Source: an uncultured Lentisphaeraceae bacterium
Lineage (GTDB): Bacteria > Verrucomicrobiota > Kiritimatiellia > RFP12 > UBA1067
Direction: 5' to 3'
Length of the DNA: 18,692 nucleotides
Assembly (NCBI GenBank): GCA_964643945.1
Contig: CAZXVN010000184.1
Location: 1-18,692 of the forward strand
The translations under genes were made by a program, and so were the position numbers. Shown one piece after another: positions 1 to 18,692 of the stretch (positions within the stretch are counted from its first letter, which is position 1; every line of letters begins with the position of its first letter). A model generated the notes under the pieces. That model was not told the DNA's origin. It searched no databases and was given only the letters and a program-made list of their open reading frames with translations.

Positions 1-1391
1 ACCTCGTACTTGCCCACCCACAACTTGAGCGACGCCACCCAAACGAACTCCATGCCCGTTGACGGCGACGCCCACGGCTCACCCTCTGCCGGCCCACTGT
101 TTCTCACCTTGGCTGCGCTGGCCAAAGCCGCCGCGTCCGCCCTTTCCTTCGCCAGCCGCGCAGCCGCCTGCCGCTCCGCATCAGCCTTCTCCCGCTGTGC
201 CGCGAACAGCCTCGCCGCCTGCTCATTCCGGCTTCGGGCTTCTGTCTCCTGTCTCCTGTATTCTCCATACGTCCTATACGTCCCGTAAGCCAGCGCGACC
301 GCCGCAACCGCCGCCAGCCCCAGCGCCCACGCCTTCTTCTGACTCCTGACTCCCGGCTTCTGACTTCTGTCTCCCGCCAGCGCCGCCACGAAAGCGGAGC
401 AGTCGGCGAACCTCTCCCCCGGCTCCTTCGCCAGACCCCGCAGCAGCGCCGCGTTCTGCGCCTTGGTCAAAACCCCCAGGCTGTCCGGCTTCTTGTTCTC
501 CGCCGCATTGGCCATGATCACCGCATCGCCGGTGTCGAACGCGCTCGCGAACGGCACCGCGCCGCTGACCAGCTCGTAGAACAGCGCGCCCAGCGCGTAC
601 TGGTCCGCGCGCCCGTCCTGCTTCTTTCCTACCCACTGCTCCGGCGCCATGTACGGCCGCGTGCCGCTCGTGTCGCCCTTCTCCTGGCTCACCCGGCTCA
701 TGCTCGACCGGATCTCCGCCGCCAGCCCGAAGTCCAGCATCTGGACGGACAACCCCGTTCCCCTTCCGTCCCCGCTCCCCGTTCTGTCTTCTGACTTCTG
801 TCTTCTGACTTCTGTCTCTCGCGTTTCGACCATCACGTTCGAAGGCTTCACGTCCCGGTGTGCCACCCTCATGCCGTGCGCGTAGTCCAGCGCCTCCGCG
901 ACCTGCCGGCACACCTCCAGCGCCTGCGCCACCGGCACCTTGCCTTCGGAAAACTGCTTGCGCCACTTGGAGAGCGTAACCCCCGGCGCGTACGCCATCA
1001 CCATCAGGTAGTAGCCCGGCAGCACCCGCAGCGCCTGACGCACCCGCTCGTCGGCATACCGCGTCTCCTTGGCCTGATGCAGGTGCAAAGCGGCCGCGAT
1101 ATGCGGGTGGTGCAGCTTGGAGACCAGCGCGAAATTCTCCCGGATGCGCTCCAGCTCCTCGGCGTTGTTCCTCACCAAAGGCGGCAGCCCCTTCACCGCC
1201 ACCTCGATGCCCGCCACCGTGTCCCGCGCCAGGTACACCGTGCCGAACCCGCCGCCGCCCAGCTCGCGCAGCAGCTCGTACTGGTCGATGCAGCCCAGCG
1301 GAGCGCCTTCGCGGCCTGAGGTTTTCACGTCGCCCATACTCACCGGCCCGGCCCGGCGCATCGTCTCTTGATCAAAATCTTTTTCGCTCAT
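1..1391 (-). CDS. Hanks-type Ser/Thr protein kinase with TM segment and start of a C-terminal FGE-sulfatase (formylglycine-generating-enzyme-like) domain; partial, the 3' end runs off the window start
   Basis: My own translation gives an uninterrupted minus-strand frame from the ATG at 1391-1389 (RBS AAAGGAG 7 nt upstream) to position 1. It is absent from the ORF track only because no stop lies in the window. Motifs seen: LGGGGFGTVY, AVK, HRDVKPSNV, DFGLA, YMAPEQW, then TM segment WALGLAAVAAVALAY, then GMEFVWVASLKLWVGKYEV. It is a nucleotide-level paralogue of 8023-10128 (compare 400-680 with 9150-9420). It contains three in-frame heptamer-repeat insertions. Confidence 0.8.
   Translation of the reverse strand, partial: MSEKDFDQETMRRAGPVSMGDVKTSGREGAPLGCIDQYELLRELGGGGFGTVYLARDTVAGIEVAVKGLPPLVRNNAEELERIRENFALVSKLHHPHIAAALHLHQAKETRYADERVRQALRVLPGYYLMVMAYAPGVTLSKWRKQFSEGKVPVAQALEVCRQVAEALDYAHGMRVAHRDVKPSNVMVETRETEVRRQKSEDRTGSGDGRGTGLSVQMLDFGLAAEIRSSMSRVSQEKGDTSGTRPYMAPEQWVGKKQDGRADQYALGALFYELVSGAVPFASAFDTGDAVIMANAAENKKPDSLGVLTKAQNAALLRGLAKEPGERFADCSAFVAALAGDRSQKPGVRSQKKAWALGLAAVAAVALAYGTYRTYGEYRRQETEARSRNEQAARLFAAQREKADAERQAAARLAKERADAAALASAAKVRNSGPAEGEPWASPSTGMEFVWVASLKLWVGKYE
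233..267 (+). repeat. heptamer array (TYCTGWC)n, degenerate, lying in-frame in kinase 1-1391
   Basis: ttctgtc tcctgtc tcctgta ttctcc; encodes GEYRRQETEA in the kinase. Confidence 0.6.
334..378 (+). repeat. heptamer array (TYCTGWC)n lying in-frame in kinase 1-1391
   Basis: ttctgac tcctgac tcccggc ttctgac ttctgtc tcccgcc; encodes DRSQKPGVRSQKK. Confidence 0.7.
782..818 (+). repeat. heptamer array, 5 units, in-frame inside the kinase catalytic core
   Basis: ttctgtc ttctgac ttctgtc ttctgac ttctgtc; encodes ETRETEVRRQKSEDR between HRDVKPSNV and DFG. Confidence 0.8.
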
Positions 1392-2016: not shown

Positions 2017-2358
2017 TCACCTCCCGCCGTACATCAGCCAACCGGCCACACCTGCAGCGACCAGCAACACAATCACCAGAACGATCATGCCCCAGTAGCT
2101 GCGGTGGCGGCATACGCCCGCTGGCGGCAGCGCCGAATCGATGCGCGTCCGACCGGCCCGCGCGTTGTACTCCTGCTCAAGCGTTTCTTTTCGGTTCACA
2201 AATTTCTCTCTCCCCTTCTGTCTTCTGACTCCTGTCTTCTGTCTTCTGACTTCTGACTCCTGACTCCTGTCTTCTGACTCCTGTCTCCTGACTCCTGACT
2301 TCTGTCTTCTGTCTCTCAAAACACCGCCCCCAGAATCGGCGAGCCGGTCGTGCCGCAC
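2017..2358 (-). CDS. small hypothetical membrane protein; N-terminal part is encoded by heptamer-repeat array 2216-2313 (ER/K-rich) and the C-terminus is a TM helix; start uncertain (alternative GTG at 2199 with GGGGAGAG RBS)
   Basis: ORF in the track. C-terminal MIVLVIVLLVAAGVAGWLMY. It overlaps the 3' end of gene 2316-2957 by 42 nt in another frame. Confidence 0.3.
   Translation of the reverse strand: MRHDRLADSGGGVLRDRRQKSGVRRQESEDRSQESEVRRQKTGVRRQKGREKFVNRKETLEQEYNARAGRTRIDSALPPAGVCRHRSYWGMIVLVIVLLVAAGVAGWLMYGGR
2216..2313 (+). repeat. heptamer array, 14 perfect units
   Basis: Begins 3 nt after the stop of gene 2316-2957. Confidence 0.85.
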
Positions 2359-3892: not shown

Positions 3893-5110
3893 TCAGCGCA
3901 CGCGGAAAATCAGCCGCGAGGCAAACCAACACACAACGAACACAATCAACAGCAGCACGATGTTGCGCAGCGTGACCAGCGCCAAAAGCTGGTCCACCAC
4001 GTTCTCCTGCAGCACATCCGGCTTGTAAATGCCGCGTCCGCTGGCGGCCGCGACGATCGCGAAGCTGTCGTTGATGTCACGGAACTTCGCGTCGAACACG
4101 ACCTCGGTGCGGATGGCGTTGGCCTTGATTGCCGTCGCCGAGCCCGTCACCGCGCCGATCCGGTCGCCGACCGGATCAACGACCGTCACGGGCGAGGCGT
4201 CCAGCACCGACACCGCGCCGGAAAGCACCGCCACCTTATCGCTGGCCGAACCTCGCTCCCCGCCGATGTCCTGATTGATCCGCTTGAGCAGAGAGTTGCT
4301 GACCTGCCGGTTCGTACCCACACGTTCGCGCAGAAAACGGGCCATCATCCGGTCGCGCACACTGCCGTTGGGGAGGTCAAGCACGCGGATGCTTTGCTCC
4401 TTGGAAAGACAGCGCAGGAAGTTCTGGGTCATGGCCCGGCCCAATGGGCCTTCCAGCGGCAGCACCAGAATCCGGTATCCCGCCAAACGCGAGAGCACCT
4501 GGCTAGCCGCATCTTCCGCCGCCTTCTCCATGGCCATGCGCGTGTTGCGGCTGACCATCTCGTTGTCCGGGCCCGGATCGTCGTAGATGCCCTCGACCGT
4601 TCCCGCCCACAGCCGCTCCGCCGTTTCAATACTGATCAGCCGTAATGAAACCCGCACGCTCGCTTTGCCGGCCCCGTCCGTCGCGTCAATCACACGTCCG
4701 ATGATGAAGGCTTCGGCCATTTTGAAAACGCCCGTTTTCGGCAGCGTCGCGGGATCATAATCGCCGAAGTCCGTGGCGGCGTCAAAGAACCGGTCGACTT
4801 CCGTCCACTCGGCCGCCTGATCCTGATGCGTCAGAAATTCAAACTCGGAAGGCGCCTGCACCAGCCCGTTCTCGAACACCGTTGCGAACTCGTTGCCTTC
4901 GGGAATCTTCGCGTTTCCCCGCATGAGTTTGACGAACGCGATGCGTTTGACTTTCACGCGGCTGTCCGTGGTCATTTGCATGACCGCCTGGAAAGCGGCG
5001 TCCTCCGCTGCGTATGAAAGCTCCCGCGGACCAGCGGTAACCGTCTGAGCGGTTGTGAGAAACCCCACGGTGCCAAGCGCGGCAACCGCGAGACCTGTGA
5101 AACGTTTCAT
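3893..5110 (-). CDS. exported protein with N-terminal signal peptide and C-terminal TM anchor; tandem domains loosely reminiscent of a CsgG/LpoB-type fold (inference)
   Basis: The internal ATG at 5110 has a strong RBS (AAAGGAG, 7 nt spacer). The track ORF 3893-5500 extends further upstream through repeat array 5275-5351, which is unlikely to be coding. Signal peptide MKRFTGLAVAALGTVGFLTTAQTVTA; C-terminal NIVLLLIVFVVCWFASRLIF. Confidence 0.6.
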   Translation of the reverse strand: MKRFTGLAVAALGTVGFLTTAQTVTAGPRELSYAAEDAAFQAVMQMTTDSRVKVKRIAFVKLMRGNAKIPEGNEFATVFENGLVQAPSEFEFLTHQDQAAEWTEVDRFFDAATDFGDYDPATLPKTGVFKMAEAFIIGRVIDATDGAGKASVRVSLRLISIETAERLWAGTVEGIYDDPGPDNEMVSRNTRMAMEKAAEDAASQVLSRLAGYRILVLPLEGPLGRAMTQNFLRCLSKEQSIRVLDLPNGSVRDRMMARFLRERVGTNRQVSNSLLKRINQDIGGERGSASDKVAVLSGAVSVLDASPVTVVDPVGDRIGAVTGSATAIKANAIRTEVVFDAKFRDINDSFAIVAAASGRGIYKPDVLQENVVDQLLALVTLRNIVLLLIVFVVCWFASRLIFRVR

Positions 5111-5163: not shown

Positions 5164-5188
5164 TGAAGAAGAAGTCAGAAGAAGACAG
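5164..5188 (-). repeat. reverse-orientation heptamer copy (GWCAGRA) in the spacer; inverted partner of 5275-5351
   Basis: gaagaagaa gtcagaa gaa gacagga. Confidence 0.6.
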
Positions 5189-5231
5189 GATTCGGAATCG
5201 CCGATGCCGACTGCTTTTTTCCGTCTTGCTT

Positions 5232-6179
5232 TCATTCCGGCTCCTGACATTTAATGCCCGTCTTTTCTTTCCCCTTCTGACTTCTGTCTTCTGACTCCTG
5301 GCTTCTGTCTTCCGACTTCTGTCTCCTGTCTTCTGTCTCCTGACTTCTGTCGCCCGTCTCCCCGAACCCGGCCAGCTCGGCCGCGAAATCGCCCGTGTCC
5401 CGGTCGCGCCTGCGGCCCGCGCGGTCCAGGTCTCCCACGGCGTCCTGCACCGACTCGGCGTCGCCGGTCTTGTCCTCGATGTCGTCCGCGAGCCGGTCAA
5501 TCAGGTTCTCGTCCACCTTGCCGCGCAGGCCGTGCGCGATCAGCTCCATGAAGCGCCCCTTGACCGTGAGGATCGTCTGCTCGTTCTCCGAGAGCAGCAT
5601 GAACTCGCGCTCCAGGCTCTTGTACTGCGTCATCAGCGTCTGCAGCTCGGTCTTCAACATGCGCTGGCGGACCGGCGAGGCACCCTCGTAGGCCTTCTTC
5701 TTCGAGGCGATCACCCCGTGCAGCACCTCCATCTCGGCCGACGCCTTCTCGCGCCGCGCGCGGTTCTCGTCCAGGCCGCTGTTGAGCGAACCCAGCATCG
5801 CCTCGGGCGAACGGTCCACATGGATCTTCGCCCACAGACCCTTCACGCCCGCGCCGATCTTTCCGGCCAGAACGACAGTCTCAGCCATGGCCTTCTTCGC
5901 CAGCTCCTTCGTGGCGCTGCGGACAAGCCGCTGTTCCTCCTCGCGGTTCTCGGCCCCTGTCTCATCCTTCTGACTTCTGTCTTCTGTCTTCTGACTTCTG
6001 ACTTCTGTTCCCATAACCTTCTCCTTCCATCCGTGCTCCGGACACCGCCCGTTACCTTGATTCGCATGCAACACGCAGAACGCCGCCCCGCACCCCTTCT
6101 CCGCACAGCGCCCCCCGACCGCCCAGCGGTTCGGCAGACTTTGCTCGCATATGCAACACTGTTCGCGCTTGTCATTCAT
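5232..6179 (-). CDS. zinc-ribbon protein with ER/K-rich linker and ~190-aa coiled-coil/helical domain (possible PspA/ESCRT-III-like); C-terminus encoded by repeat array
   Basis: N-terminal CCICEQ...C...C..CPEHG zinc-ribbon motif, then a helical region (RLVRSATKELAKKAMAE ... LIDRLADDIEDKTGD). Two heptamer arrays lie in-frame (5968-6009 linker, 5275-5351 C-terminus). The duplicated promoter element is ~160 nt upstream. Confidence 0.55.
   Translation of the reverse strand: MNDKREQCCICEQSLPNRWAVGGRCAEKGCGAAFCVLHANQGNGRCPEHGWKEKVMGTEVRSQKTEDRSQKDETGAENREEEQRLVRSATKELAKKAMAETVVLAGKIGAGVKGLWAKIHVDRSPEAMLGSLNSGLDENRARREKASAEMEVLHGVIASKKKAYEGASPVRQRMLKTELQTLMTQYKSLEREFMLLSENEQTILTVKGRFMELIAHGLRGKVDENLIDRLADDIEDKTGDAESVQDAVGDLDRAGRRRDRDTGDFAAELAGFGETGDRSQETEDRRQKSEDRSQESEDRSQKGKEKTGIKCQEPE
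5275..5351 (+). repeat. heptamer array, 11 units; encodes the C-terminus of gene 5232-6179
   Basis: ttctgac ttctgtc ttctgac tcctggc ttctgtc ttccgac ttctgtc tcctgtc ttctgtc tcctgac ttctgtc. Confidence 0.85.
5968..6009 (+). repeat. heptamer array, 6 units, forming an in-frame linker in gene 5232-6179
   Basis: Encodes GTEVRSQKTEDRSQKDE. Confidence 0.8.
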
Positions 6180-6235
6180 TTAATTCGTATACAATACCGT
6201 TTCCATTCTCCAGCCTCAAGCATCCCGTCTCCAAA

Positions 6236-6326
<91 letters not shown>

Positions 6327-6346
6327 TTTTTCCCTTAAACGCCGCT

Positions 6347-6376
6347 ATCTTACGTTTTGTTTACGTCTGTTGTCAA
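6347..6376 (-). promoter_or_regulatory. sigma70-like promoter (minus strand: TTGACA, 18-nt spacer, TAAGAT), copy A of a duplicated ~50-bp element; AT-rich UP-like tract at 6381-6440
   Basis: On the minus strand the sequence reads TTGACAACAGACGTAAACAAAACGTAAGAT. It is near-identical to 15977-16006 (4 mismatches over ~52 bp). Confidence 0.5.
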
Positions 6377-6482
6377 CTGCTATTATCAATTATTTTTAAA
6401 TTATTTTATTTTATCTCTGTTACTCATTACACGAACTCGAATCTTTCGCCGCTCTCGCCCCCCCATCGGACGGGCCCGCCCC

Positions 6483-7694
6483 TCACAACGTTCCCCCGGC
6501 CTCCAGCCAATCAGGAAGATACAGACGCCGCACGCCCTCGTAATCGTCGCCCGCCTCGCGGTCGAGCGTGAGCAACACCTTCGGATAGTTGTCTTTAACC
6601 GCCAGCAGCGGCGCGGTCTCCCGCTCGACCGTCGCCTTCGTCGGCAACAGATACGCGACCTGGATATACGTCTTCTTGCCCTCGCGCTCGGCCACGAAAT
6701 CGATCTCGAGATCGCCAACCCGCCCGACAGACACACGACAGCCCCTGCGCAGAAGCTCGAGACAGACCACATTCTCGAGCACTCCCCCGATATCGTCCGC
6801 ACGGTGTCCGAGCAAGGCCGTACGCAACCCCAGATCGCCGACATAGTGCTTCTCGTTCACCTCCAGATGCCGCCGGCCCTTGATATCGTACAGCAGCACC
6901 CGGTGGGTCAGGTGCGCCTCCGCGAACCACCGCATGTAATTCAGGATGGTGTCCACCCCCACGGAAAGTTTCTGACTCTTCAGAAACGCGTTGATCCGGC
7001 TGGCGTTCGTGAGATTGCCGATGTTGTCGAAAATATACCGCCCCACCTTTTCGAGCAGGGCGTAGTTCCGCACCTGATGACGCCGCACAATGTCCTTCAG
7101 CATGATCGTGTCGTAAACGCCCGTGACAAACGGCAGGAACGTCGCCTCGGCAAGCGGCCCGAACTCGTGCAGGCCGGGCAGCCCGCCATAGCGCAAGAAG
7201 GCCCTGAACGCCTCGGCTGTTTCCGTTTTCCGCAACCCGTTGAACGCCCGGAACTCCGTAAAGGAAAGCGGGTAGACCTGCACCTCCACGAACCTTCCCG
7301 CCAGCAGCGTGGCCAGCTCGCCGGAAAGCATCCGGGCGTTCGACCCGGTGATCACCACGTCCATGTCGCGCCGCCCGGACCCGTCCGCAACGATCCGCTC
7401 CCAGCCCTCGATCTCCTGGATCTCATCCACGAAAACGTGGCAGACCCCCTTGCCTTTCGGGCACGCGGCTTTCACATGCGCCGCCAGATCATGATACGTG
7501 CGGATCGCGTCGAACGCATACGACTCCTTGTCGACGTAGACGATCCGCTCCCGCCTCACCCCGTCCGCGACCAGCTTGTCGATCAGCCGGACCAGACAGC
7601 TCTTGCCCGAACGCCGCATCCCGGTGACGACCTTCACCACCGGCTTGCCCAGAAACGGCTCGATCTGCTTCACATAGAGATTTCGCTTATACAC
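6483..7694 (-). CDS. AAA_14 / DUF4143 family ATP-binding protein
   Basis: GTG start with AAGGAG RBS 8 nt upstream. Walker A GMRRSGKS, Walker-B-like HVFVDEIQ, and the long C-terminal region typical of the DUF4143 family. Confidence 0.8.
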   Translation of the reverse strand: MYKRNLYVKQIEPFLGKPVVKVVTGMRRSGKSCLVRLIDKLVADGVRRERIVYVDKESYAFDAIRTYHDLAAHVKAACPKGKGVCHVFVDEIQEIEGWERIVADGSGRRDMDVVITGSNARMLSGELATLLAGRFVEVQVYPLSFTEFRAFNGLRKTETAEAFRAFLRYGGLPGLHEFGPLAEATFLPFVTGVYDTIMLKDIVRRHQVRNYALLEKVGRYIFDNIGNLTNASRINAFLKSQKLSVGVDTILNYMRWFAEAHLTHRVLLYDIKGRRHLEVNEKHYVGDLGLRTALLGHRADDIGGVLENVVCLELLRRGCRVSVGRVGDLEIDFVAEREGKKTYIQVAYLLPTKATVERETAPLLAVKDNYPKVLLTLDREAGDDYEGVRRLYLPDWLEAGGTL

Positions 7695-7771: not shown

Positions 7772-7921
7772 TTACCCGGCCCGCGTCGCGTCCTCATTCA
7801 TCGTCTGCTGCCTGTTGTCCACCAACACGTTCGCTGGCTTGATGTCGCGGTGGACCACGCCCTGCCCGTGCGCGTATGCCAAAGCCTCCGCCACCTGCCC
7901 GCCCCACCACACGTCCAGCAT
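7772..7921 (-). pseudogene. relic fragment of a Ser/Thr kinase gene (subdomain VIb: [25 protein letters not shown])
   Basis: A 49-codon minus-strand [52 protein letters not shown]. The nucleotide sequence is similar to 9527-9600 of kinase 8023-10128. No N- or C-terminal kinase lobes flank it. Confidence 0.5.
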
Positions 7922-8022: not shown

Positions 8023-10128
8023 CTACTGACCTGGGAGAAGGACAGCCCGGAACCCGATCCTGGAGTCGCGGTGGTTCGGTTTGCGGCCGCCGCGGTCCGC
8101 AACCCGGCAATCGCCCGCGTAGCCGCGCCAACTGCCGCCGCGGGCCACGCGGGGCGAGCCCGACGTCGGACCTGCGGGATCAGTCACACTCCCGGACGGA
8201 TAATCGCCGTACCAGTCCTGGCACCACTCCCACACGTTGCCGAGCATGTCGTAAAGACCCCAGGCGTTCGCCTGTTTCTGCCCTACAGCATGCGTCACCT
8301 GCCCACTGTTGCCGCTATACCAGCCCATATCCAGAGCTCCTGCATACGATCCCACCGCCCCCGCTCGACAAGCATACTCCCACTCCGCCTCCGTCGGCAG
8401 CCGAAACCGTCCCCCGGGAGGGACGCGCGTCTGCGCGTCCGCCAGCTTCGCGTTCAGCTTCCTCATAAACTCCTGACAGTCCTCCCAACTCACCTTCTCC
8501 ACCGGCAAATCAGCGCTCTTAAAGTTGCTGGGGTTGGTGCCCATGACTGCCCCCCACTGCCGCTGCGTCACCTCGGTCTTCCCCATCCAAAACCCCTTAG
8601 TAAGCGTCACCCGGTGCTGTGTCTCGTCTTTAGACCGGCCCGTTTCGCTTTCGGGACTCCCCATCATAAAGCTACCCGCCGGGCACCACGCCAGCTCGAT
8701 CTTCACGCCGCCGCCGAGGTCTAAAGTCTCCGTGTCGCCAGGGTTATGTCCGGCCTTCTGCACGGCGGCGCTTGCCACCTTTAGCCTCTCGCTTTCAGCA
8801 GCCAACGCTTCCTGCTTATGCGTTTCTTCCTGCTCGGACGCCGGACGCGCAGACGCGCGTCCCTCCGAGGCGTTAACGGGAGGGTCAAGCGTCTGCTTGA
8901 CCGCAAGACGCGCCTGTATCTCATGCCGGTTCCAAAAAGCCGCGAACCCATAGGCGGTCACAGCCGCAACCGCTCCAGCCGCAACCCACAGCCACGCCTT
9001 CCTCTTTCCTCCGCCATCCGCCTTCTGGCCACCGCCCTCTGGCTCCCGACGCCCGACGCCCGACTCACGACTCTCGACTCCCTGTCTTACGACCTCCACC
9101 TTCCAGTTTCTCTCCCCCTGCCCTCCGGCACCCTTTCCCGCCAGCGCCTTCACAAATTCCCCGCAGCTCGCGAACCTCTCCCCCGGCTCTTTTGCCAGCG
9201 CCCGCAACAGCGCCGCGTTGACATGCGCCGGCACGCCTTCCAGCGGACGGGGTGCCTCTTTCAGCACCGCCTCGCGCAGCACCGCTGTGTCGTGGCCCTC
9301 GAAGGGCGGCGACCCGCCCACCAGCTCGTAGACCGTCGCCGCCAGCGCGTACTGGTCCGCGGGCGCGCCCTGCGGCCGCCCCTGCCACTGCTCCGGCGCC
9401 ATGTAGGGTCCCGTGCCGCTCGTGCCGTGGGTGGTCTGGCTCACGCGGCTCAGGCTCATGTGCAATTGCGCCGCGAGCCCGAAGTCCAGCACCTTCACCT
9501 CGCCCGCGAAGTTCACCCGCACGTTGCTCGGCTTGATGTCGCGGTGGATCACGCCCTGCTCGTGCGCGAAGTCCAGCGCCTCCGCGATCCGGTAGGCGAT
9601 GATCGTCACCTCGTCCAGCGTCAGCGGCCGGCCCTCCTCGCGCCGCCGCCGCACCCACTGCCGCACGTCGTAGCCGTCCACGCACTCCATGACCAGATAA
9701 TAGTCGCCCGTGACCGGATCCTTCTCCAGCGTGTTGACGTTGGCGATGTTCGGGTGGTGGAGCTTCGAGACCAGCCGGAAGTTCTCGCGCACCTCCTCCA
9801 TCTCGCCGCTGTTGTGCCCCACCTCCGGAGGCAGCGCCTTCAGCGCCACATCCAAGCCCGCCACCTCATCGTGGCAGCGGTACACCACGCCCATGCCGCC
9901 CTGCCCAAGCTCCCCCTCCACCCGGTAGCGCCCCAAAAGCACCTCGCCGGCCGCTAGGCGCCGCCCCGCAGGCCCCGCCCCGCCCGGCCGCATCGTCTTG
10001 ACGCTGCCTAGGCTCAAGTCATCCGCGGGTGCGCTCCCGCCATGCCGCAGGGTCGGCGAATCGCCCAGGCTGCGGTCGTCCGGCGGCTTGCCGCCCATCG
10101 TCTTTTGATTGCCGATCGAGTTATCCAT
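8023..10128 (-). CDS. Hanks-type Ser/Thr protein kinase - TM - FGE-sulfatase (SUMF1-like) domain fusion
   Basis: LGQGGMGVVY, ALK, HRDIKPSNV, DFGLA, YMAPEQW; TM segment WLWVAAGAVAAVTAYGFAAF; C-terminal FGE-like region (GSFMMGSP ... GLYDMLGNVWEW ... RGGSW). The start is uncertain because there is no clear RBS at 10128. Confidence 0.85.
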   Translation of the reverse strand: MDNSIGNQKTMGGKPPDDRSLGDSPTLRHGGSAPADDLSLGSVKTMRPGGAGPAGRRLAAGEVLLGRYRVEGELGQGGMGVVYRCHDEVAGLDVALKALPPEVGHNSGEMEEVRENFRLVSKLHHPNIANVNTLEKDPVTGDYYLVMECVDGYDVRQWVRRRREEGRPLTLDEVTIIAYRIAEALDFAHEQGVIHRDIKPSNVRVNFAGEVKVLDFGLAAQLHMSLSRVSQTTHGTSGTGPYMAPEQWQGRPQGAPADQYALAATVYELVGGSPPFEGHDTAVLREAVLKEAPRPLEGVPAHVNAALLRALAKEPGERFASCGEFVKALAGKGAGGQGERNWKVEVVRQGVESRESGVGRREPEGGGQKADGGGKRKAWLWVAAGAVAAVTAYGFAAFWNRHEIQARLAVKQTLDPPVNASEGRASARPASEQEETHKQEALAAESERLKVASAAVQKAGHNPGDTETLDLGGGVKIELAWCPAGSFMMGSPESETGRSKDETQHRVTLTKGFWMGKTEVTQRQWGAVMGTNPSNFKSADLPVEKVSWEDCQEFMRKLNAKLADAQTRVPPGGRFRLPTEAEWEYACRAGAVGSYAGALDMGWYSGNSGQVTHAVGQKQANAWGLYDMLGNVWEWCQDWYGDYPSGSVTDPAGPTSGSPRVARGGSWRGYAGDCRVADRGGRKPNHRDSRIGFRAVLLPGQ
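9044..9114 (+). repeat. degenerate heptamer-periodic array (TCCCGAC/GCCCGAC/TCACGAC/TCTCGAC...) lying in-frame inside kinase 8023-10128
   Basis: 7-nt periodicity read directly. It encodes VEVVRQGVESRESGVGRRE at the position homologous to the ER/K inserts of kinase 1-1391. Confidence 0.5.
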
Positions 10129-10190: not shown

Positions 10191-10232
10191 TTCTGTCTTC
10201 TGACTTCTGTCTCCTGACTCCTGTCTTCTGTC
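10191..10232 (+). repeat. heptamer array, 6 units, in the Vps4-like to kinase spacer
   Basis: ttctgtc ttctgac ttctgtc tcctgac tcctgtc ttctgtc. Confidence 0.8.
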
Positions 10233-10234
10233 GC

Positions 10235-11353
10235 CTATCCGAACCGCGCCTGCCTGAACTTTTCGAACTCGCGCAGCATCGCTTCCGTGATCGAGCTGGG
10301 GACGCGCCGCCGCGCCTCCTCGAAGTCCCCTGCCGTCAAAACAGGATCGCCATCTTCAAGCACGGCGCGGCCGAGCGCAAGGCGCTTGGCCGTGTTCACG
10401 ACCGCCGCCACGTCGCTCCCGGAAAAGCCCTCCAGCGCCTCCGCCAGCGCGCCTCCATCCACCGCCTCGCCGCACACGGCGCTTCCCAGATGCTTTTTGA
10501 AAATGCCCAGCCGAGCCTCGGCGTCCGGCGGCCCGATGAAAATCTTCTCGTCGAAACGCCCCGTGCGGAACACCGCCTCGTCGATCTCCCACGGCTTGTT
10601 CGTGGCGCCCAGGATCAACAGCACGTTCTTCGTCTCGCGGAAACCGCCCACATCCGCCAGGAACTGCGTCACGATGCGGTGGTCGGCACCGGAGGTGCCG
10701 TCGTCGCGCTTGGGCAGCAGCGCCTCGACCTCGTCCAGAAACAGCACCGCCATCGGCTGCTCCTGAGCCGTGCGGATCAGCCGGCTCAGCCGCTGCTCCG
10801 ACTCGCCGTACCACTTGGACCGCAACTGCGCGCCCGAGGCATAGTAGAACGGACACTCCAGCACTCCCGCCACCGCCTTGCCCAGCATCGTCTTGCCGGT
10901 GCCGGGAGGGCCGTACACCAGCACGCCCCCGCCCGGATTCAGCCCCAGCGCCCGCGCTTTCTCGGGGCTCTTCATCGGATACACCACCATCTCGTGGATC
11001 ACGCGCTTCGCGTCGGCCATGCCCGCAATGTCGTCGAATGTCACGTCCGGCTTCTCCGCCACCAGCCACTCGTCGCCGTCGGAAGGCTCGACGCTCGACT
11101 CACGACCAGCGACGGGCGAATGCTGACCGCCGCCCGCCGACTGCCGCTTCTTTAGCTCATTCGCCAGCGCCACCCACCCCTCCGCGTCCTGCGCGTGCGC
11201 CTCGGCCACAGGCCCGCTGCTGCGCTCCGCCAGCGCGAAGCCGCACTCCGCCGCGCGCGCCGCCGCCGCCGCCGCACGCCCGTAGTCGCGCACCTTGACG
11301 AACTCCGCGCAGGCGTTCTCGTGCCCCGTTTTGATCTCAACCATCGAGCGCAT
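10235..11353 (-). CDS. Vps4-like (meiotic clade) AAA+ ATPase with ~100-aa N-terminal extension (possible MIT-like domain)
   Basis: Walker A GPPGTGKT; pore loop 1 SKWYGESE (the Vps4/spastin/katanin signature); Walker B LFLDEVEA; GATNKPWEIDEAVFRTGRFD; C-terminal helix MLREFEKFRQARFG (compare the Vps4 C-terminal ...W..EFG). The start follows the upstream gene's stop by 12 nt, with RBS GAGAGGGGA. Confidence 0.85.
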   Translation of the reverse strand: MRSMVEIKTGHENACAEFVKVRDYGRAAAAAARAAECGFALAERSSGPVAEAHAQDAEGWVALANELKKRQSAGGGQHSPVAGRESSVEPSDGDEWLVAEKPDVTFDDIAGMADAKRVIHEMVVYPMKSPEKARALGLNPGGGVLVYGPPGTGKTMLGKAVAGVLECPFYYASGAQLRSKWYGESEQRLSRLIRTAQEQPMAVLFLDEVEALLPKRDDGTSGADHRIVTQFLADVGGFRETKNVLLILGATNKPWEIDEAVFRTGRFDEKIFIGPPDAEARLGIFKKHLGSAVCGEAVDGGALAEALEGFSGSDVAAVVNTAKRLALGRAVLEDGDPVLTAGDFEEARRRVPSSITEAMLREFEKFRQARFG

Positions 11354-11365
11354 CGTTGTCCCCTC

Positions 11366-11989
11366 TCACTTCAGCATCTCGCGCACCTTCTCCTGGCCGC
11401 CGCCGATGCGGCGTTCCAGATCGGAAGAGGTCTTCGCGCTCACGCCGGAAATGTCGGCGGACACCTCCTGCTCCAGCGATTTCGTCAGCTCCTCCATGGA
11501 CGGGATGTGGTCCTGCATGTTGCCTGTCGCGCCTTCCATCTCCTTGTCGTACAGCGACGCCCAGAAGCGGTCCGCGTCCTGCTGCTCGCCCAGCAACTCG
11601 CCCGCCGTGTCGAACACGTCCTCGACCATTTCCGGATTGATGTCCGTTACCTTGTTGACCGCCGCCAGTGCGCTGGCGAACTCGGCGTCGGTCCCGGCGG
11701 TCTCCATCTTCATGAGATACTGCTCGAACACCCAGCGCTTCTGCTCCAGCTTGGTCATCAGCACCTGCGCCGCGCGGTAGCTGGTCAGGGAGCGCTGCGC
11801 GGCCGCCTTCTTTCCTTCCTTGAGCGCGTCCCGCGCCTTCTGCCAGTCCGCCTCCGCGTCCTTCTCCATACGCTTGGCGCGGTCTTTCACATCCTGCACC
11901 GCGTTCTCCGCCTGCCGGAACGCCCGCCGCCGGTCCTTGCGCACCGCCCGCTCTTTTTCCTTCTTCGTCTTGATGAATAGAAAACTCAT
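11366..11989 (-). CDS. ESCRT-III / Snf7-family (PspA-Vipp1 superfamily) protein
   Basis: 207 aa. N-terminus MSFLFIKTKKEKE resembles the CHMP/Snf7 MxxLFGK motif. Basic helical N-half (KDRRRAFRQAENAVQDVKDRAKRMEKDAE...KEGKKAAAQRSL) and acidic C-half (PEMVEDVFDTAGELLGEQQDAD...). C-terminal SSDLERRIGGGQEKVREMLK resembles a MIM1 (D/E)xxLxxRL motif. Strong RBS AAAGGAG. The next gene downstream is the Vps4-like ATPase. Confidence 0.65.
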   Translation of the reverse strand: MSFLFIKTKKEKERAVRKDRRRAFRQAENAVQDVKDRAKRMEKDAEADWQKARDALKEGKKAAAQRSLTSYRAAQVLMTKLEQKRWVFEQYLMKMETAGTDAEFASALAAVNKVTDINPEMVEDVFDTAGELLGEQQDADRFWASLYDKEMEGATGNMQDHIPSMEELTKSLEQEVSADISGVSAKTSSDLERRIGGGQEKVREMLK

Positions 11990-12008
11990 ACCATGCTCCT
12001 TTCTGAAC

Positions 12009-12043
12009 AGCAGAAGACAGAAGTCAGAAGACAGAAGTCAGAA
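12009..12043 (-). repeat. reverse-orientation heptamer array, 5 units; inverted partner of 12082-12154
   Basis: cagcaga gacagaa gtcagaa gacagaa gtcagaa. Confidence 0.8.
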
Positions 12044-12081
12044 TAAACACGTCGAGAAAGTCGCTTTTGTCGATCGTTCCA

Positions 12082-12154
12082 TTCTGATTCCTGACTCCTG
12101 ACTTCTGTCTCCCGTCTCATTCTGACTTCTGACTCCTGTCTCCTGACTCCTGCC
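12082..12154 (+). repeat. heptamer array, ~10 units, in the FHA to ESCRT-III spacer
   Basis: ttctgat tcctgac tcctgac ttctgtc tcccgtc ... ttctgac ttctgac tcctgtc tcctgac tcctgcc. Confidence 0.8.
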
Positions 12155-12157
12155 GTC

Positions 12158-13735
12158 TCACAGCCCATACTGACTAAACGTCTTGACCTCGATCTGCACG
12201 CCGCCCGCGCCGATCCGCGTGCCGGGCACCAGCCACCCCGCCGCACCCTCCGCACGCCAGGCGAACGCGCCGCGCTCGTGGCACACCGTCACCCCCTCGC
12301 ACCCCGGCAGAATGTTCCCGAGATCCAGGCAGGACCACATCACCGCATAGACCTCCGACACCGCGTCCCGGCGCCGCAGGATGACCGCAGGCGTCTTGCC
12401 GCGGTGGCACATCTTCTCGTCGCGCCCCCCGCACGCCGCGCACCGCGCCGTATCGAAAAAGCAGCCGTGCGCCGTCAGCCCGAAATCGTATGCGTCCGCC
12501 GTGCCCGCCAACCCCAGCGCGGCCACTGCGGGAAAACGGTCCGCCGGAAAGCGCTCGCTGCCCTTGACCGCCCGACCCTGCCAGAAAACCCCGCAGGCGG
12601 AGGCTTGCATCACACCGTTCTCAGTCCGCACACCGTCATGCACAATGCACTGCCCGTCGGCGTACTCCAGCGTGCAGTGAAACTTGCTGATGCGCGCGTT
12701 GCGTTCAGGAAGGGCCTCGCCGTCCGGCTCGAACAACCGCGTCACGATCTGATTGGCGCGGTTCTTGCCCAATGTGACCCGACTTCCCGCGATCAGATGC
12801 GCAATCCGGTTCCCGACGCGAAGAGTCACCCGCTCGGCCGTCGCCGCCGCAGGTGCCGCAGGCAGCGGGTGATGCAGCACCCAGCCCGACTCAAAAAGAC
12901 TCAGCCGGTGAAACGCCGGCGGCTTGGAGTGCAGCAGGTTCAGCAGTTCCTCGATCGAATGGGCCTGCCCGTTCTTGACCAGCTTGCTCACCGCCTCGGC
13001 CGCGTCCTGGTGTACACGGATATCCGCCGCATGCCCGGCCTTGATGTCGTTGTTGATGTTGAAGGTGATGTTGTCCGCGACCTGCTTGGTCGAACAGTCC
13101 GCCGGATAAACGAACAGGCATACCTCGGTCTCGTATGTGGTGGTCTTGCCGTCTTTCGTCAGCCCGAAGTAGACCGACGCCGAGAACGCGCCGTGATTCA
13201 TGGGATGCACCGGCAGGTTGATCCCGCGCGGCACCCCGAGCTTGGGGTTCGGCCAGTTGAAGGGATGCTCGACCACCTGAGAGATCCCGTTCGGCTTGAG
13301 CCACACGCGGACGTGCTGGACACCCTCGACAAGCGGCGTCAGCCGGAAGCGCACCAGCGCGCTGGCACCCGCCACGCAGAACGCCAGGGTGTCGCTTTCC
13401 ACACACAGCCACGGGCAATCCCCGAAGCCGTCATCGTCCGTGCCGACGCTCTGCGCCGCCGCAGTCCGCTCATTGACGGGTTCGGTGTTGAGCAGAATGA
13501 TCCGGGCCGGCCGCTCGTCAGGATCTGGCGTCCTGATGATCGCGGCAACCGCCGACGGCGCCTCGCCCACGGAATCGCCCGGCCTCCGCAGATAAGTCGG
13601 CTCCGGCCGGAAACCGCTCTCGGCTTCCGCAGGCGTTGCCGCCGACGGACCCGGCGCCAGCGGCGCGCCGCATCTGTCGCAGAACGAGCCCTCTACCGTC
13701 TTCCCTCCGCATGTCCGGCAACTCACCCGAGCCAT
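12158..13735 (-). CDS. zinc-ribbon + FHA-domain protein with Cys-rich C-terminal region
   Basis: N-terminal CRTCGGKTVEGSFCDRCG. FHA-like core GKNRANQIVTRL...RISKFHCTLEYADGQCIVHDGVRTENGVMQASACGV. C-terminal CAACGG...C..GCEGVTVC. RBS GAGGAG 8 nt upstream; the start lies 12 nt after the upstream stop. Confidence 0.7.
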   Translation of the reverse strand: MARVSCRTCGGKTVEGSFCDRCGAPLAPGPSAATPAEAESGFRPEPTYLRRPGDSVGEAPSAVAAIIRTPDPDERPARIILLNTEPVNERTAAAQSVGTDDDGFGDCPWLCVESDTLAFCVAGASALVRFRLTPLVEGVQHVRVWLKPNGISQVVEHPFNWPNPKLGVPRGINLPVHPMNHGAFSASVYFGLTKDGKTTTYETEVCLFVYPADCSTKQVADNITFNINNDIKAGHAADIRVHQDAAEAVSKLVKNGQAHSIEELLNLLHSKPPAFHRLSLFESGWVLHHPLPAAPAAATAERVTLRVGNRIAHLIAGSRVTLGKNRANQIVTRLFEPDGEALPERNARISKFHCTLEYADGQCIVHDGVRTENGVMQASACGVFWQGRAVKGSERFPADRFPAVAALGLAGTADAYDFGLTAHGCFFDTARCAACGGRDEKMCHRGKTPAVILRRRDAVSEVYAVMWSCLDLGNILPGCEGVTVCHERGAFAWRAEGAAGWLVPGTRIGAGGVQIEVKTFSQYGL

Positions 13736-13747
13736 AAGTTATTCTCC

Positions 13748-15418
13748 TCAATGCACGATCGTCTGCGGCTGGGCCGCCTGCCGTTTGGCAGCCTCCACCG
13801 CCGGCTCGAGCATCGTTTTCAGGTTCTTGTCCTGCCGGTCGTTGGCATCCGCGTAGAGCTTCTTCATCTCAGCCAGCAGCATCTCGGCGTTCTGCCTGGT
13901 GCGGTCGCTCATCTTGCCGAGCGCCTCCGCCGCCGCCGGGCTGCTGTGCGCCGCCTCGGCCAGGATCTGCTCGGGCGTCATCGTGCGGTTGCGCTCCACC
14001 ATCATCAGCTCGACCAGCTGACGCCGCAGGGCGGGATCGTCCACATCCGCCAGCATCTGCTCCGTGGTCATCCCCGCACGCCGCTTGGCCTCAGCCGCCT
14101 TGCGCTCCAGCTCTATCCCGTCTTTCCGGGAACGCATGTCCAGCGCCCACTCCGCCTCGGTCTTCTCCTGCTGGAACGTCTCGTTCCGGGCCTTGGCCTG
14201 CGCGTTGGCCTGCTTCACGGCAAGCTCAAGATTGTAATCGTCCCATTTGACCTTGACGCCGATCGCCTGCTCCGCCTTCTGGTTCTCGACATCGTGCCGG
14301 TGCCGCAGATCGTCCAGCTCGTTCAGATGCGCATAGCCGCGCAGCAGCACCGTCCGCTCCTGCTCGCGCTGGGCCTGCGCGATGCCGTGCTCGTGCGCGG
14401 CCTGCTCCTCGTACTCCAGCAGGTCGGTCTTGTCCTTGAACTGGGCCATCGCCTCTTTGTTCAGCAGCCCGCGCATGGCCGACGCGTACTCCAGCTCGCG
14501 CCGCTTGATGTCCACCTCGCCGAGCCGCTCCGCGTACTCCTCGTACTCGTCGCCCGTGAACTCCGCCGACGACACGCGCACCACCTGCAGGCCGTACCGC
14601 CCGATGTCCTCGCCGATCGCCCGGACCATCGTCTCCTGCAGGCGCAGCCGCCGCTCAGGATCGCGCACAAGGTCATCCAGCGTAGAGGTCACGCACAGCG
14701 CGTCCACCGCCGCGCGCACCGCCCCCTGCAGCGCCTCGGAAAGATCCTTGTACGCCAGATGACGCCGGTCCTTGAGCCCGTTCTCCAGCAGCGCCAGCGC
14801 GGCGGCCTTGTCATTGCCGAACCGCAGGATCACCTCGCCGTAGAACTCGATCGGGTGATGCTCCGCCGTACGCAGACCGGTCACGCGCAGCGGCAGCGCC
14901 ACGTCGCCGCAGTCGGCCATCACTGCCGAGCGCGGGGGCGGGTCGCCGAACCAGTTGATCTTGCGCGCCAGGCTGTCCGGGTTGTGACGGCCGCTCTCGA
15001 GGATGCCGTGGATGTGGCCGCCGTCCAGCACCACCGCCACCGTGCCCTCCTGCACCATCAGGTCGTCCTGCAAGAGCCGCTTGATGTCGCCGATCTCGAA
15101 GCGCTGCGCGAACAGCCCCGGATCCTTGCGCCACACGCCGCCGGCCATCACCGCGCGGTCTTCCGGGAAGAGCGGGGTGTTGCAGTGCGAGCAATACTGC
15201 GACGCGTTGCCGATCCACTTCTTGCACGAGGGACACTTCCACCAGCCCCCCGGCGCGGGCACGCCGCACTTGTTGCAGAAGCGCGCGGCCTTGCGCACCG
15301 AATTGCCGCAGCGCGCCCACTTCGGATCCAGTTTCGCCTGCGCCAAGGCCTCGCCGCCCAGCGCCCGCCCCGTCCGGGGGTCGATCAAAGCGTCACACCG
15401 GTCACTGAATATGCCCAT
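13748..15418 (-). CDS. zinc-ribbon + SPFH (band-7 / flotillin-like) protein with long C-terminal coiled coil
   Basis: Two CxxC pairs (CGNSVRKAARFCNKCG, CPSCKKW...CSHCNTP), then an SPFH core (QEGTVAVVLDGGHIHGILESGRHNPDS ... GLQVVRVSSAEF), then ~250 aa of E/K/R/A-rich coiled coil. RBS AAAGGCGAGGT. Confidence 0.75.
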   Translation of the reverse strand: MGIFSDRCDALIDPRTGRALGGEALAQAKLDPKWARCGNSVRKAARFCNKCGVPAPGGWWKCPSCKKWIGNASQYCSHCNTPLFPEDRAVMAGGVWRKDPGLFAQRFEIGDIKRLLQDDLMVQEGTVAVVLDGGHIHGILESGRHNPDSLARKINWFGDPPPRSAVMADCGDVALPLRVTGLRTAEHHPIEFYGEVILRFGNDKAAALALLENGLKDRRHLAYKDLSEALQGAVRAAVDALCVTSTLDDLVRDPERRLRLQETMVRAIGEDIGRYGLQVVRVSSAEFTGDEYEEYAERLGEVDIKRRELEYASAMRGLLNKEAMAQFKDKTDLLEYEEQAAHEHGIAQAQREQERTVLLRGYAHLNELDDLRHRHDVENQKAEQAIGVKVKWDDYNLELAVKQANAQAKARNETFQQEKTEAEWALDMRSRKDGIELERKAAEAKRRAGMTTEQMLADVDDPALRRQLVELMMVERNRTMTPEQILAEAAHSSPAAAEALGKMSDRTRQNAEMLLAEMKKLYADANDRQDKNLKTMLEPAVEAAKRQAAQPQTIVH

Positions 15419-15589: not shown

Positions 15590-15949
15590 TCAGTCTGACT
15601 TCTGTCTTCTGACTTCCGGCTTCTTCTCCCCATGTGCCCCGCACACTCGCACGCCCTGCCGTTTCCAGCAATCGAAACAGACCGGCGCGCCGCAGACCGT
15701 GCAGGCCTGCTGCAGCGCGCCCTTGCTCCGGTAATAGGTGCCGCACGCCTCGCAGGTCCCGCCTTCGGCGGCCTCCCGCTTGCTGCGGCTCAAATAGTCG
15801 CCCAGATCCGTCCGCGAGACCCGGTACAGCTTGCCCAGGCGCGCGGCGGGCAGCTCGCCCGCGCGCACCAGCCGGTAGATGAGTTGATAGGTCACGCCCA
15901 TCTCGTCCGCTACCTCCTCCAGGCTCAGATGCTCTTTGTCCGTCGGCAT
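15590..15949 (-). CDS. HTH_17 (MerR/excisionase-family) DNA-binding protein with C-terminal zinc ribbon; putative regulator and first gene of string 1
   Basis: LSLEEVADEMGVTYQLIYRLVRAGELPAARLGKLYRV (helix-turn-helix), then CEACG...CTVCG..CFDC...C. The preferred start is the ATG at 15949 with GGAGGTG 7 nt upstream; the track's 15955 is a GTG inside the RBS. The last codons read into repeat array 15594-15621. Confidence 0.65.
   Translation of the reverse strand: MPTDKEHLSLEEVADEMGVTYQLIYRLVRAGELPAARLGKLYRVSRTDLGDYLSRSKREAAEGGTCEACGTYYRSKGALQQACTVCGAPVCFDCWKRQGVRVCGAHGEKKPEVRRQKSD
15594..15621 (+). repeat. heptamer array, 4 units, forming the C-terminus of the regulator gene
   Basis: gtctgac ttctgtc ttctgac ttccggc; encodes ...PEVRRQKSD*. 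Confidence 0.75.
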
Positions 15950-18657: not shown

Positions 18658-18691
18658 AGATCGGAAGAGCACACGTCTGAACTCCAGTCAC
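18658..18691 (+). other. Illumina TruSeq adapter sequence AGATCGGAAGAGCACACGTCTGAACTCCAGTCAC at the contig end (contamination)
   Basis: Exact 34-nt match to the universal TruSeq adapter read-through sequence. It yields the well-known artefactual peptide GVQTCALPI in ORF 18275-18691. Confidence 0.95.
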
Positions 18692-18692
18692 C

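Follow-up and report, generated by a model that had tools for sequence, protein, structure and literature searches.

Why does a bacterial protein kinase carry, in the middle of its catalytic core, a peptide written in a seven-nucleotide repeat, and does this peptide matter to the enzyme? The question is raised by the first gene of contig CAZXVN010000184.1 (assembly GCA_964643945.1) of an uncultured Lentisphaeraceae bacterium, whose 18,692 nucleotides were analysed as a whole and are referred to as the window. A sequence-only reading of the window had described a repeat-derived insertion between the catalytic loop and the DFG motif of this receptor-type serine/threonine kinase, which is missing from a paralogue in the same window. 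The observation is real and its earlier interpretation is correct, except that the insert had been treated as a one-off. It is instead one case of a repeat-driven hypervariability that affects this turn throughout the lineage, in a kinase domain that is rigid elsewhere. We consider it probable that the insert is a tolerated, fast-evolving expansion between strands β7 and β8 of a functional Hanks-type receptor kinase, made and kept repetitive by slippage at heptamer simple sequence repeats (SSRs).

Sequence and borders of the insert

The minus-strand sequence of the kinase reads HRDVKPSNVMVET-RETEVRRQKSEDRTGSGDGRGTG-LSVQMLDFGLA, and the translation of positions 1-1391 reproduces exactly the string that had been quoted before. 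Translation likewise bears out the paralogue at 8023-10128 (minus strand), which has HRDIKPSNVRVNFAGEVKVLDFGLA at the matching place without an insert. The borders, by contrast, have to be moved. The extent of 779-826 given earlier covers the purine-rich half of the repeat together with the codons for "ET", and leaves out the G-rich half at 753-780. Because "ET" belongs to the conserved β7 motif V-E-T, which forms the left border of each insert in the family table, the insert starts at residue 191 and occupies positions 753-821. The insertion between the two motifs is thus real, and comprises 23 residues (191-213) instead of 25. The net gain in length is 22 aa relative to the paralogue and 18 aa relative to the 29-residue ground state of the family, counted from HRD to DFGLA. 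The description as an ER/K insertion holds for the first half, which is rich in E, R and K, while the second half is rich in G, D, R and T.

At the DNA level the insert consists of two period-7 arrays, which read on the sense strand GAGACA GAAGTCA GAAGACA GAAGTCA GAAGACA GAAC and then GGGGAGC GGGGACG GAA GGGGAAC GGGG; the period-7 self-match over the whole insert is 0.63. The first array can be written as (GAAGWCA)5 and belongs to the unit family AGWCAGR, which is common to the dispersed arrays of the window. For positions 782-817, Tandem Repeats Finder (TRF) reports a period of 7 with 5.1 copies and 86% match as well as a period of 14 with 2.6 copies and 100% match, the perfect stretch of the array measuring merely 36 nt. 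The 14-mer GAAGTCAGAAGACA occurs 20 times in the window with at most one mismatch, against 0.01 occurrences expected from shuffles. Both results confirm the proposed origin of the insert from repeats. The second array (753-780) contains a canonical G-quadruplex (G4) motif on the sense strand, GGGGAGCGGGGACGGAAGGGGAACGGGG, with four consecutive G-tracts and short loops. It is the sole match in the window to a motif of four runs of four G, and 200 shuffles returned 0 such matches.

No significant secondary structure was found in the RNA fold of the insert (z = -1.1 for the minimum free energy), and a search for palindromes anchored in its flanks gave longest stems of 4 and 6 bp. On these two grounds a hairpin or a mobile element of the kind of the Rickettsia palindromic elements (RPEs) was rejected for the insert of the window. 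No Rfam family was matched by the window or by 11 related loci, nor by the insert region when E-values were set permissively.

The kinase around the insert

The kinase gene starts at 1391 on the minus strand and continues past the left edge of the window (Table 1). Its full product, P0001 (649 aa), has the annotation "bifunctional Ser/Thr kinase / FGE-family protein"; a transmembrane helix at aa 355-372 separates the kinase domain at the N-terminus from the FGE-sulfatase domain at the C-terminus. The identical 649-aa protein is encoded on the NCBI contig JBAXCU010000023.1, and the closest named homologues come from metagenome-assembled genomes (MAGs) of Kiritimatiellae. The match to Pfam PF00069 (Pkinase) has an E-value of 1.8e-35 and, with 123.1 bits, lies above the curated cut-off of 31.7. 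All catalytic motifs are found, namely GGGGFG (45-50), VAVKG (64-68), HRDVKPSN (178-185), DFG (220-222) and APE (249-251), and the Gly-loop, VAVK, HRD..N, DFG and APE are invariant among 71 relatives.

Substitution patterns separate the insert from its surroundings. Relative to the orthologue in the metagenome locus L002 (dS ~0.8-0.9), the ratio of non-synonymous to synonymous substitution rates (dN/dS) amounts to 0.126 in the part upstream of the insert and to 0.141 in the part downstream; relative to the homologue in locus L003 the values are 0.137 and 0.315, and the insert codons themselves have a dN of 0.42-0.45. By these measures the gene is not decaying, and the flanks of the insert are under purifying selection. 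The reading frame is kept on both sides of the insert, and the intact open reading frame (ORF) of 649 aa runs through the transmembrane segment and the FGE-sulfatase domain. Together with the motifs and with dN/dS values of 0.13-0.14 on both sides, this agrees with the earlier expectation that the protein is probably made. Orthologues pointing to a decaying pseudogene, which had been named as a reason to give up that expectation, were not found; the comparison with L002 (dN/dS ~0.13) and the invariant motifs indicate the opposite. Judged from its sequence, the enzyme looks intact and is most likely still a functional Hanks-type receptor kinase, whose catalytic activity would be retained.

The structure prediction that had been suggested as a check gave an AlphaFold2 model with a mean predicted local distance difference test score (pLDDT) of 85 and a predicted template modelling score (pTM) of 0.83. 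The model has a bilobal fold like that of PknB, in which the insert appears as a coil of low confidence, and its top Foldseek matches are PknB/PknA of M. tuberculosis and Stk1 of S. aureus (E ~1e-20). Residues 186-190 form β7 and residues 214-218 form β8, and residues 191-213 in between are predicted as disordered coil with pLDDT ~54-62, so that the insert would protrude between the two strands as had been proposed. By analogy with CLK1/3 (PMC2667211), the turn would sit atop the C-lobe over the αD/αE groove and not in the cleft.

Table 1. Positions of the kinase, its insert and the heptamer arrays within the window.
Feature	Position	Strand	Basis or remark
Receptor-type Ser/Thr kinase gene, 5' part	1..1391	minus	1391 nt, 463 codons; translation
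Protein kinase catalytic domain, PknB-like fold	531..1280	minus	aa 38-287 by Pfam
Catalytic loop HRDVKPSN, aa 178-185	837..860	minus	translation; invariant in 71 relatives
β7 strand VMVET, aa 186-190	822..836	minus	DSSP of model
Insert RETEVRRQKSEDRTGSGDGRGTG, aa 191-213, predicted coil	753..821	minus	69 nt; translation; pLDDT 54-62
Heptanucleotide array of the insert, GAGACA to final GAA	782..823	minus	encodes ETEVRRQKSEDR
G-rich period-7 stretch of the insert	753..780	minus	encodes GSGDGRGTG
β8 strand LSVQM, aa 214-218	738..752	minus	AlphaFold2 model, translation
DFG motif, aa 220-222	726..734	minus	same frame as HRD
In-frame AGWCAGR array, juxtamembrane linker (DRSQKPGVRSQKK)	336..376	minus	TRF, translation
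Short AGWCAGR array just past transmembrane helix (EYRRQETEARSR)	242..259	minus	TRF, translation
Largest dispersed AGWCAGR array, 14 units, filling the spacer between two co-directional genes	2217..2314	minus	
Further AGWCAGR arrays	5276-5345, 5956-6003, 6237-6327, 10192-10226, 12090-12148, 15594-15614	minus	
AGWCAGR-family arrays in opposite orientation	12015-12042, 5173-5189		

The β7-β8 turn as a hypervariable site

The family was surveyed in the 71 relatives, of which the named ones are Kiritimatiellae MAGs, in 84 metagenome loci and in a tree of 99 kinases; the metagenome loci yielded 105 HRD..DFG segments, 102 of them distinct. Among the relatives the ground state between HRD and DFGLA is 29 aa long; 46 of the 71 have no insert, and the other 25 exceed the ground state by up to 37 residues, placed in every case immediately behind V-E-T. 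The inserts, which about a third of the relatives have, measure 4-45 aa. The 102 distinct segments include 34 distinct insert-bearing genes, in which all inserts likewise follow directly after V-E-T. The inserted sequences are unrelated and have no residues or motifs in common. The standard deviation of length is 0 at every other position of the kinase domain and reaches 8 aa at the β7-β8 turn, which is the sole length-variable position of the domain across the family. Insert-bearing genes fall mainly in two clades, clade B with the gene of the window and a larger clade A of the form "VETL...RVRILDFG".

The majority of the inserts are made of period-7 DNA, and a few have a period of 8 or 9. 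Of 594 kb that were examined, the β7-β8 loops account for 1.2%, yet they hold 16 of the 47 period-7 arrays; these counts are not independent, because many of the arrays have a common descent. In none of the 105 HRD..DFG pairs is the frame shifted or interrupted by a stop. The arrays of the window, of L002 and of the clade-B homologue L003, the latter two from other metagenome assemblies, are homologous and align in register, each with its own unit variant (GAAGWCA, GAGGRCA and GGGAGTC, respectively). The array is therefore older than the split of these lineages and evolves in concert. That orthologues read the array in different frames was discarded as uninformative, since any array of heptamers passes through all three frames in turn. 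It was also considered whether the likeness of the V-E-T codons to the heptamer unit had seeded the array, an idea that no test supported.

A kinase remnant of 49 aa at 7772-7921 (minus strand) stops a few codons past β7, i.e., at the insertion hot spot of the family, and an AAA_14/DUF4143 gene follows directly after it.

Palindromes in the sister clade

Inserts of clade A typically open with a palindrome whose 5' arm consists of the gene's own catalytic-loop and β7 codons, and typically close with another whose 3' arm consists of the gene's own β8/D(FG) codons (e.g., TCCAGAATCCGCGTGCGGATTCTGGA). The upstream palindrome, perfect or near-perfect and with a stem of 10-31 bp, is found in 19 of 34 inserts against 2 of 68 ground-state genes, and the downstream palindrome in 16 of 34 against 3 of 68. 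Heptamer arrays lie between both, which results in a layout U-U'...D'-D. Palindromic inserts are named here for the loci L022, L031, L046, L051, L021, L078, L043, L052, L054, L057 and L062. In L022 (2395-2460) the palindrome is 63 nt long with a 31-bp stem, GCCGTCGAACGTGATGGTGGAGACGCTTCCG-G-CGGAAGCGTCTCCACCATCACGTTCGACGGC, and in L031 the perfect stem measures 23 bp (24 bp with one mismatch). The window's insert and the inserts of L002 and L008, all of clade B, have no flank-copying palindromes; in L003 and L002 the insert consists of inverted arrays that fold into an imperfect hairpin.

Differences in the β7 codons between paralogues, synonymous and non-synonymous alike (GTT/GTC/GTG, ACG/ACT, ATG/GTT/ATT), are mirrored in the arm of the insert. 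In an alignment of 12 sequences 91% of the cells pair, four pairs show double-sided changes, the covariation score is reached by 0 of 500 shuffles, and pairing falls to 35-51% on sliding partners. Mismatches of the non-wobble type (21 cells) outnumber G-U pairs (9 cells) in this alignment, which fits templating at the DNA level better than selection for an RNA structure. Over 92 kinase genes, the HRD-DFG interval contains 26 hairpins whose stem is 8 bp or longer, compared with 2-9 in each 100-nt bin outside it. The codons for DFGLAAEI form a further palindrome with a stem of 9-10 bp in L022, L057, L061 and L084, e.g., GGATTTCGGC...GCCGAAATCC in L022 and L061; L084 encodes a kinase without an insert.

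A complete diversity-generating retroelement (DGR) stands beside homologous kinase-FGE genes in L003, with bAvd at 5214-5588 and RVT_1 at 5585-6634. Its variable region and template repeat lie at 4952-5095 and 6645-6791, the former at the FGE-sulfatase C-terminus and the latter downstream of the reverse transcriptase (RT). As this variable region is part of a kinase-FGE gene, the kinase family is a DGR target in relatives. A DGR variable region at the kinase loop itself was rejected, since the contig has neither RT nor template repeat and the pair in L003 maps to the C-terminal FGE domain. RVT gave no match among the called genes of the contig, nor among the 19 larger ORFs of the window that were scanned against Pfam.

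The U-U'...D'-D layout resembles footprints of P-nucleotide addition, snap-back or hairpin-end repair. The palindromes may have arisen by fold-back repair or by arm-to-arm conversion, or they may serve a structural function. It is a tentative thought, to which we give limited credence, that the β7-β8 turn of this DGR-associated kinase family might be a site-specific hot spot of DNA rearrangement driven by hairpin or fold-back events, of which the insert in the window would be a derivative in which the palindromes were lost and the repeats alone were kept.

Heptamer arrays elsewhere in the window

The 18.7 kb of the window contain 12 arrays of the form (YCTGWCT)n on the plus strand, which corresponds to AGWCAGR on the sense strand of minus-strand genes. 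Five of them lie, according to the gene calls, in short spacers between co-directional genes (2217-2314, 6237-6327, 10192-10226, 12015-12042 and 12090-12148). One is found inside the kinase core, and the remaining ones are intragenic at linkers or termini, i.e., at 242-259 and 336-376 in the kinase, in a 260-aa protein and in the last codons of a helix-turn-helix protein. Read in the AGWCAGR sense orientation, the arrays are open in all three frames, whereas TGA stops occur on the opposite strand, TGACTYC; arrays in coding sequence must therefore take the AGWCAGR orientation. In a scan of species-representative genomes, (AGWCAGR)4 was found in Cyanobacteria, Verrucomicrobia, Acidobacteria, Kiritimatiellota and many others.

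The arrays at 12015-12042 and 12090-12148 stand in opposite orientation within one inter-gene spacer of 168 nt and, if transcribed together by read-through, would pair into a long, imperfect hairpin. The insert-free paralogue has its own in-frame array, (GGGAGTC)n at 9043-9082 (minus strand), in the juxtamembrane linker (VESRESGVGRREPEGGG), and its unit is the same as that of the kinase-loop insert in L003. A gene cluster at 10235-15418 (minus strand) comprises genes for an AAA ATPase (PF00004 plus lid) and a zinc-ribbon/Band_7 (SPFH) protein, and for two proteins with weak matches, one of 207 aa to Snf7/ESCRT-III and one of 525 aa to FHA. This cluster may be a membrane-remodelling module, and it is kept beside the kinases in L003.

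The window was also compared with the NCBI MAG contig JBAXCU010000023.1 (GCA_037141315.1), which has the reverse orientation. The two differ by ~6 single-nucleotide polymorphisms and one 3-nt indel near 7590, with no difference in any array or in the insert region. The last 35 nt of the window (18658-18692) are the reverse complement of the Illumina TruSeq adapter (GTGACTGGAGTTCAGACGTGTGCTCTTCCGATCT) and absent from the NCBI copy; they are untrimmed contamination of the contig end.

Origin of the insert and alternative explanations

In the explanation that we favour, DNA slippage or template switching at heptanucleotide repeats would change the length and sequence of the turn. Since 7 is not a multiple of 3, most such changes would shift the frame; selection on the kinase would remove them, and in-frame combinations alone would survive. 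The peptide of the loop would be a by-product of the DNA repeat, because a heptamer array encodes one 7-aa repeat in all three frames. CLK kinases and SRPK1 bear inserts on top of the C-lobe, and the loop is expected to project at this place as well, without harm to catalysis. We infer that slippage generated the loop and that the loop itself is neutral; the insert is probably of little functional consequence.

Several observations weigh against this explanation. No other surface loop of the domain varies in length, which a filter for permissive loops alone leaves unexplained, and neither does a permissive loop account for the 7-nt periodicity of the DNA, which is kept over species-level divergence. 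The heptamer of the insert is also present in inter-gene spacers in matching orientation, which could mean a function at the level of the nucleic acid. Moreover, the two assembly versions are identical at the insert and show no difference in repeat number.

One alternative is a selected loop, i.e., a docking, insulation or autoregulatory element made hypervariable by diversifying selection among paralogous receptor kinases. The single variable site in a domain of otherwise invariant length is consistent with this, and so are the persistence of inserts in orthologues over dS ~0.8, the presence of several paralogues side by side in genomes and a Ser/Thr in basic context (RRQKS) within the insert. 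The β7/8 hairpin of CLK, which covers the αD/αE docking groove, is a precedent at the same site (PMC2667211). We nevertheless regard such a loop as unlikely. The inserts share no conserved residues or motifs, that of the window is of low complexity and predicted coil, and 46 of the 71 relatives do without one. What sets the peptide is moreover the DNA repeat and, in the sister clade, palindromes in which synonymous codon choices reappear; this points to the DNA, and not the peptide, as the level under constraint.

Alternatively, selection might act on a nucleic-acid element within the coding sequence, namely the heptamer array, the G-quadruplex or both. Such an element would serve as a binding site or structure in mRNA or DNA and modulate mRNA decay, translation or transcription, as has been suggested for the intergenic heptamer repeats TAACTGA and GGGNATC. 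Five inter-gene spacers of the window contain the identical 14-mer, the purine-rich strand is nearly always the sense strand, and (AGWCAGR)4 arrays are spread over many phyla. The canonical G4 motif has four G-tracts, and four units are preferred in heptamer repeats of the G4 type (PMC4692102). Against this stand the lack of an Rfam match and of a significant fold in the window's insert (z = -1.1), the different units in orthologues and the under-representation of such repeats in coding regions (PMC4692102). The sense orientation within coding sequence is forced anyway, as the TGACTYC strand gives TGA stops. We hold this explanation to be rather improbable.

More doubtful still is a phase-variation switch, in which gain or loss of 7- or 14-nt units would shift the frame upstream of DFG and turn the kinase off reversibly. 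The unit length is not divisible by 3 and the array lies upstream of essential motifs, and the neuO gene of E. coli K1 is a precedent for an in-frame coding heptamer array that acts in this way: in the O-acetyltransferase NeuO, (AAGACTC)n is translated as heptad repeats, and 65.6% of genomes are OFF (PMC13001214). The kinase array resembles that of NeuO as a non-triplet heptamer array in a coding region that gives a 7-aa repeat in all frames and a full-length product at certain copy numbers. It differs in that NeuO has 3-53 perfect, phase-variable units at the 5' end, whereas the kinase has about five imperfect units (or 2.6 perfect 14-mers) in an internal loop. The tract is thus short, 0 of 105 family genes are out of frame, and the two assembly versions have arrays of the same length, all of which makes such a switch very unlikely.

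A decaying pseudogene or an assembly artefact, for which the short-read MAG as source, the untrimmed adapter at one end of the window and the truncated kinase remnant at 7772-7921 could be cited, is practically negligible and was ruled out by the intact 649-aa ORF with all motifs conserved, by the dN/dS of ~0.13 downstream of the insert and by homologous inserts at the same site in independent samples.

Relation to known repeats and kinase inserts

Heptamer SSRs and β7/β8 inserts of kinases are already known, each as a kind. According to Mrazek (2007), as cited in PMC4679880, heptamers are the commonest class of long SSRs (LSSRs) in SSR-rich bacterial genomes and are ascribed to polymerase slippage. 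The TAACTGA repeats of Beggiatoaceae are candidates for intergenic regulation (PMC4679880), and G4-forming heptamers such as GGGNATC and GGGGA(C/T)T prefer four units (PMC4692102, Rehm et al. 2015); the G-rich variant in the window likewise has four G-tracts. With the bacterial heptanucleotide LSSRs, including those of Mrazek, the cyanobacterial short tandemly repeated repetitive (STRR) sequences, TAACTGA and GGGNATC, the arrays described here share a period of 7, dispersal as a multi-copy family in one genome, enrichment in spacers between co-directional genes and stop codons in one orientation. Unlike these, which lie between genes or at the ends of proteins, they are placed within an enzyme's catalytic core, and in a large family of paralogues they appear repeatedly at a single structural position.

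Among eukaryotic kinases, CLK1/CLK3 have a β7/8 hairpin, and SRPK1 has a spacer of ~250 aa at β7-β8 that is dispensable for catalysis (PMC2667211). In the model, the insert of the window corresponds to both, as it separates β7 from β8, downstream of the catalytic loop and upstream of DFG, and appears compatible with catalysis. Whereas the hairpin of CLK is conserved, ordered and docked on αD/αE, the insert is non-conserved, of low complexity, repeat-encoded and predicted coil.

Insertion in frame within protein-coding genes is reportedly also a property of the RPEs, as described by Ogata et al. in 2000. These elements are reviewed in PMC10969869. The likeness lies in selfish or neutral repetitive DNA that is tolerated in frame at protein surfaces. 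RPEs are, however, discrete mobile palindromes of ~100-150 bp with a conserved sequence, whereas the insert in the window is a tandem SSR without a palindrome, and the palindromes of the sister clade copy the flanking codons of the host gene instead of an element consensus.

Implications

The insert provides a natural example of non-triplet, 7-nt repeats that are held in frame inside a catalytic core under purifying selection. The turn, as the sole length-variable position of the domain, parallels the inserts of the eukaryotic CLK and SRPK kinases and is of use in kinase engineering and in the annotation of low-complexity inserts. The palindromes that copy flanking codons could matter more than the insert of the window itself. 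If a fold-back or hairpin repair process that recurs at a defined site gives rise to them, a mechanism of mutation in bacteria that is poorly understood would become directly testable. Should such fold-back events indeed be recurrent or programmed, they would represent a second, RT-independent way to diversify these kinases.

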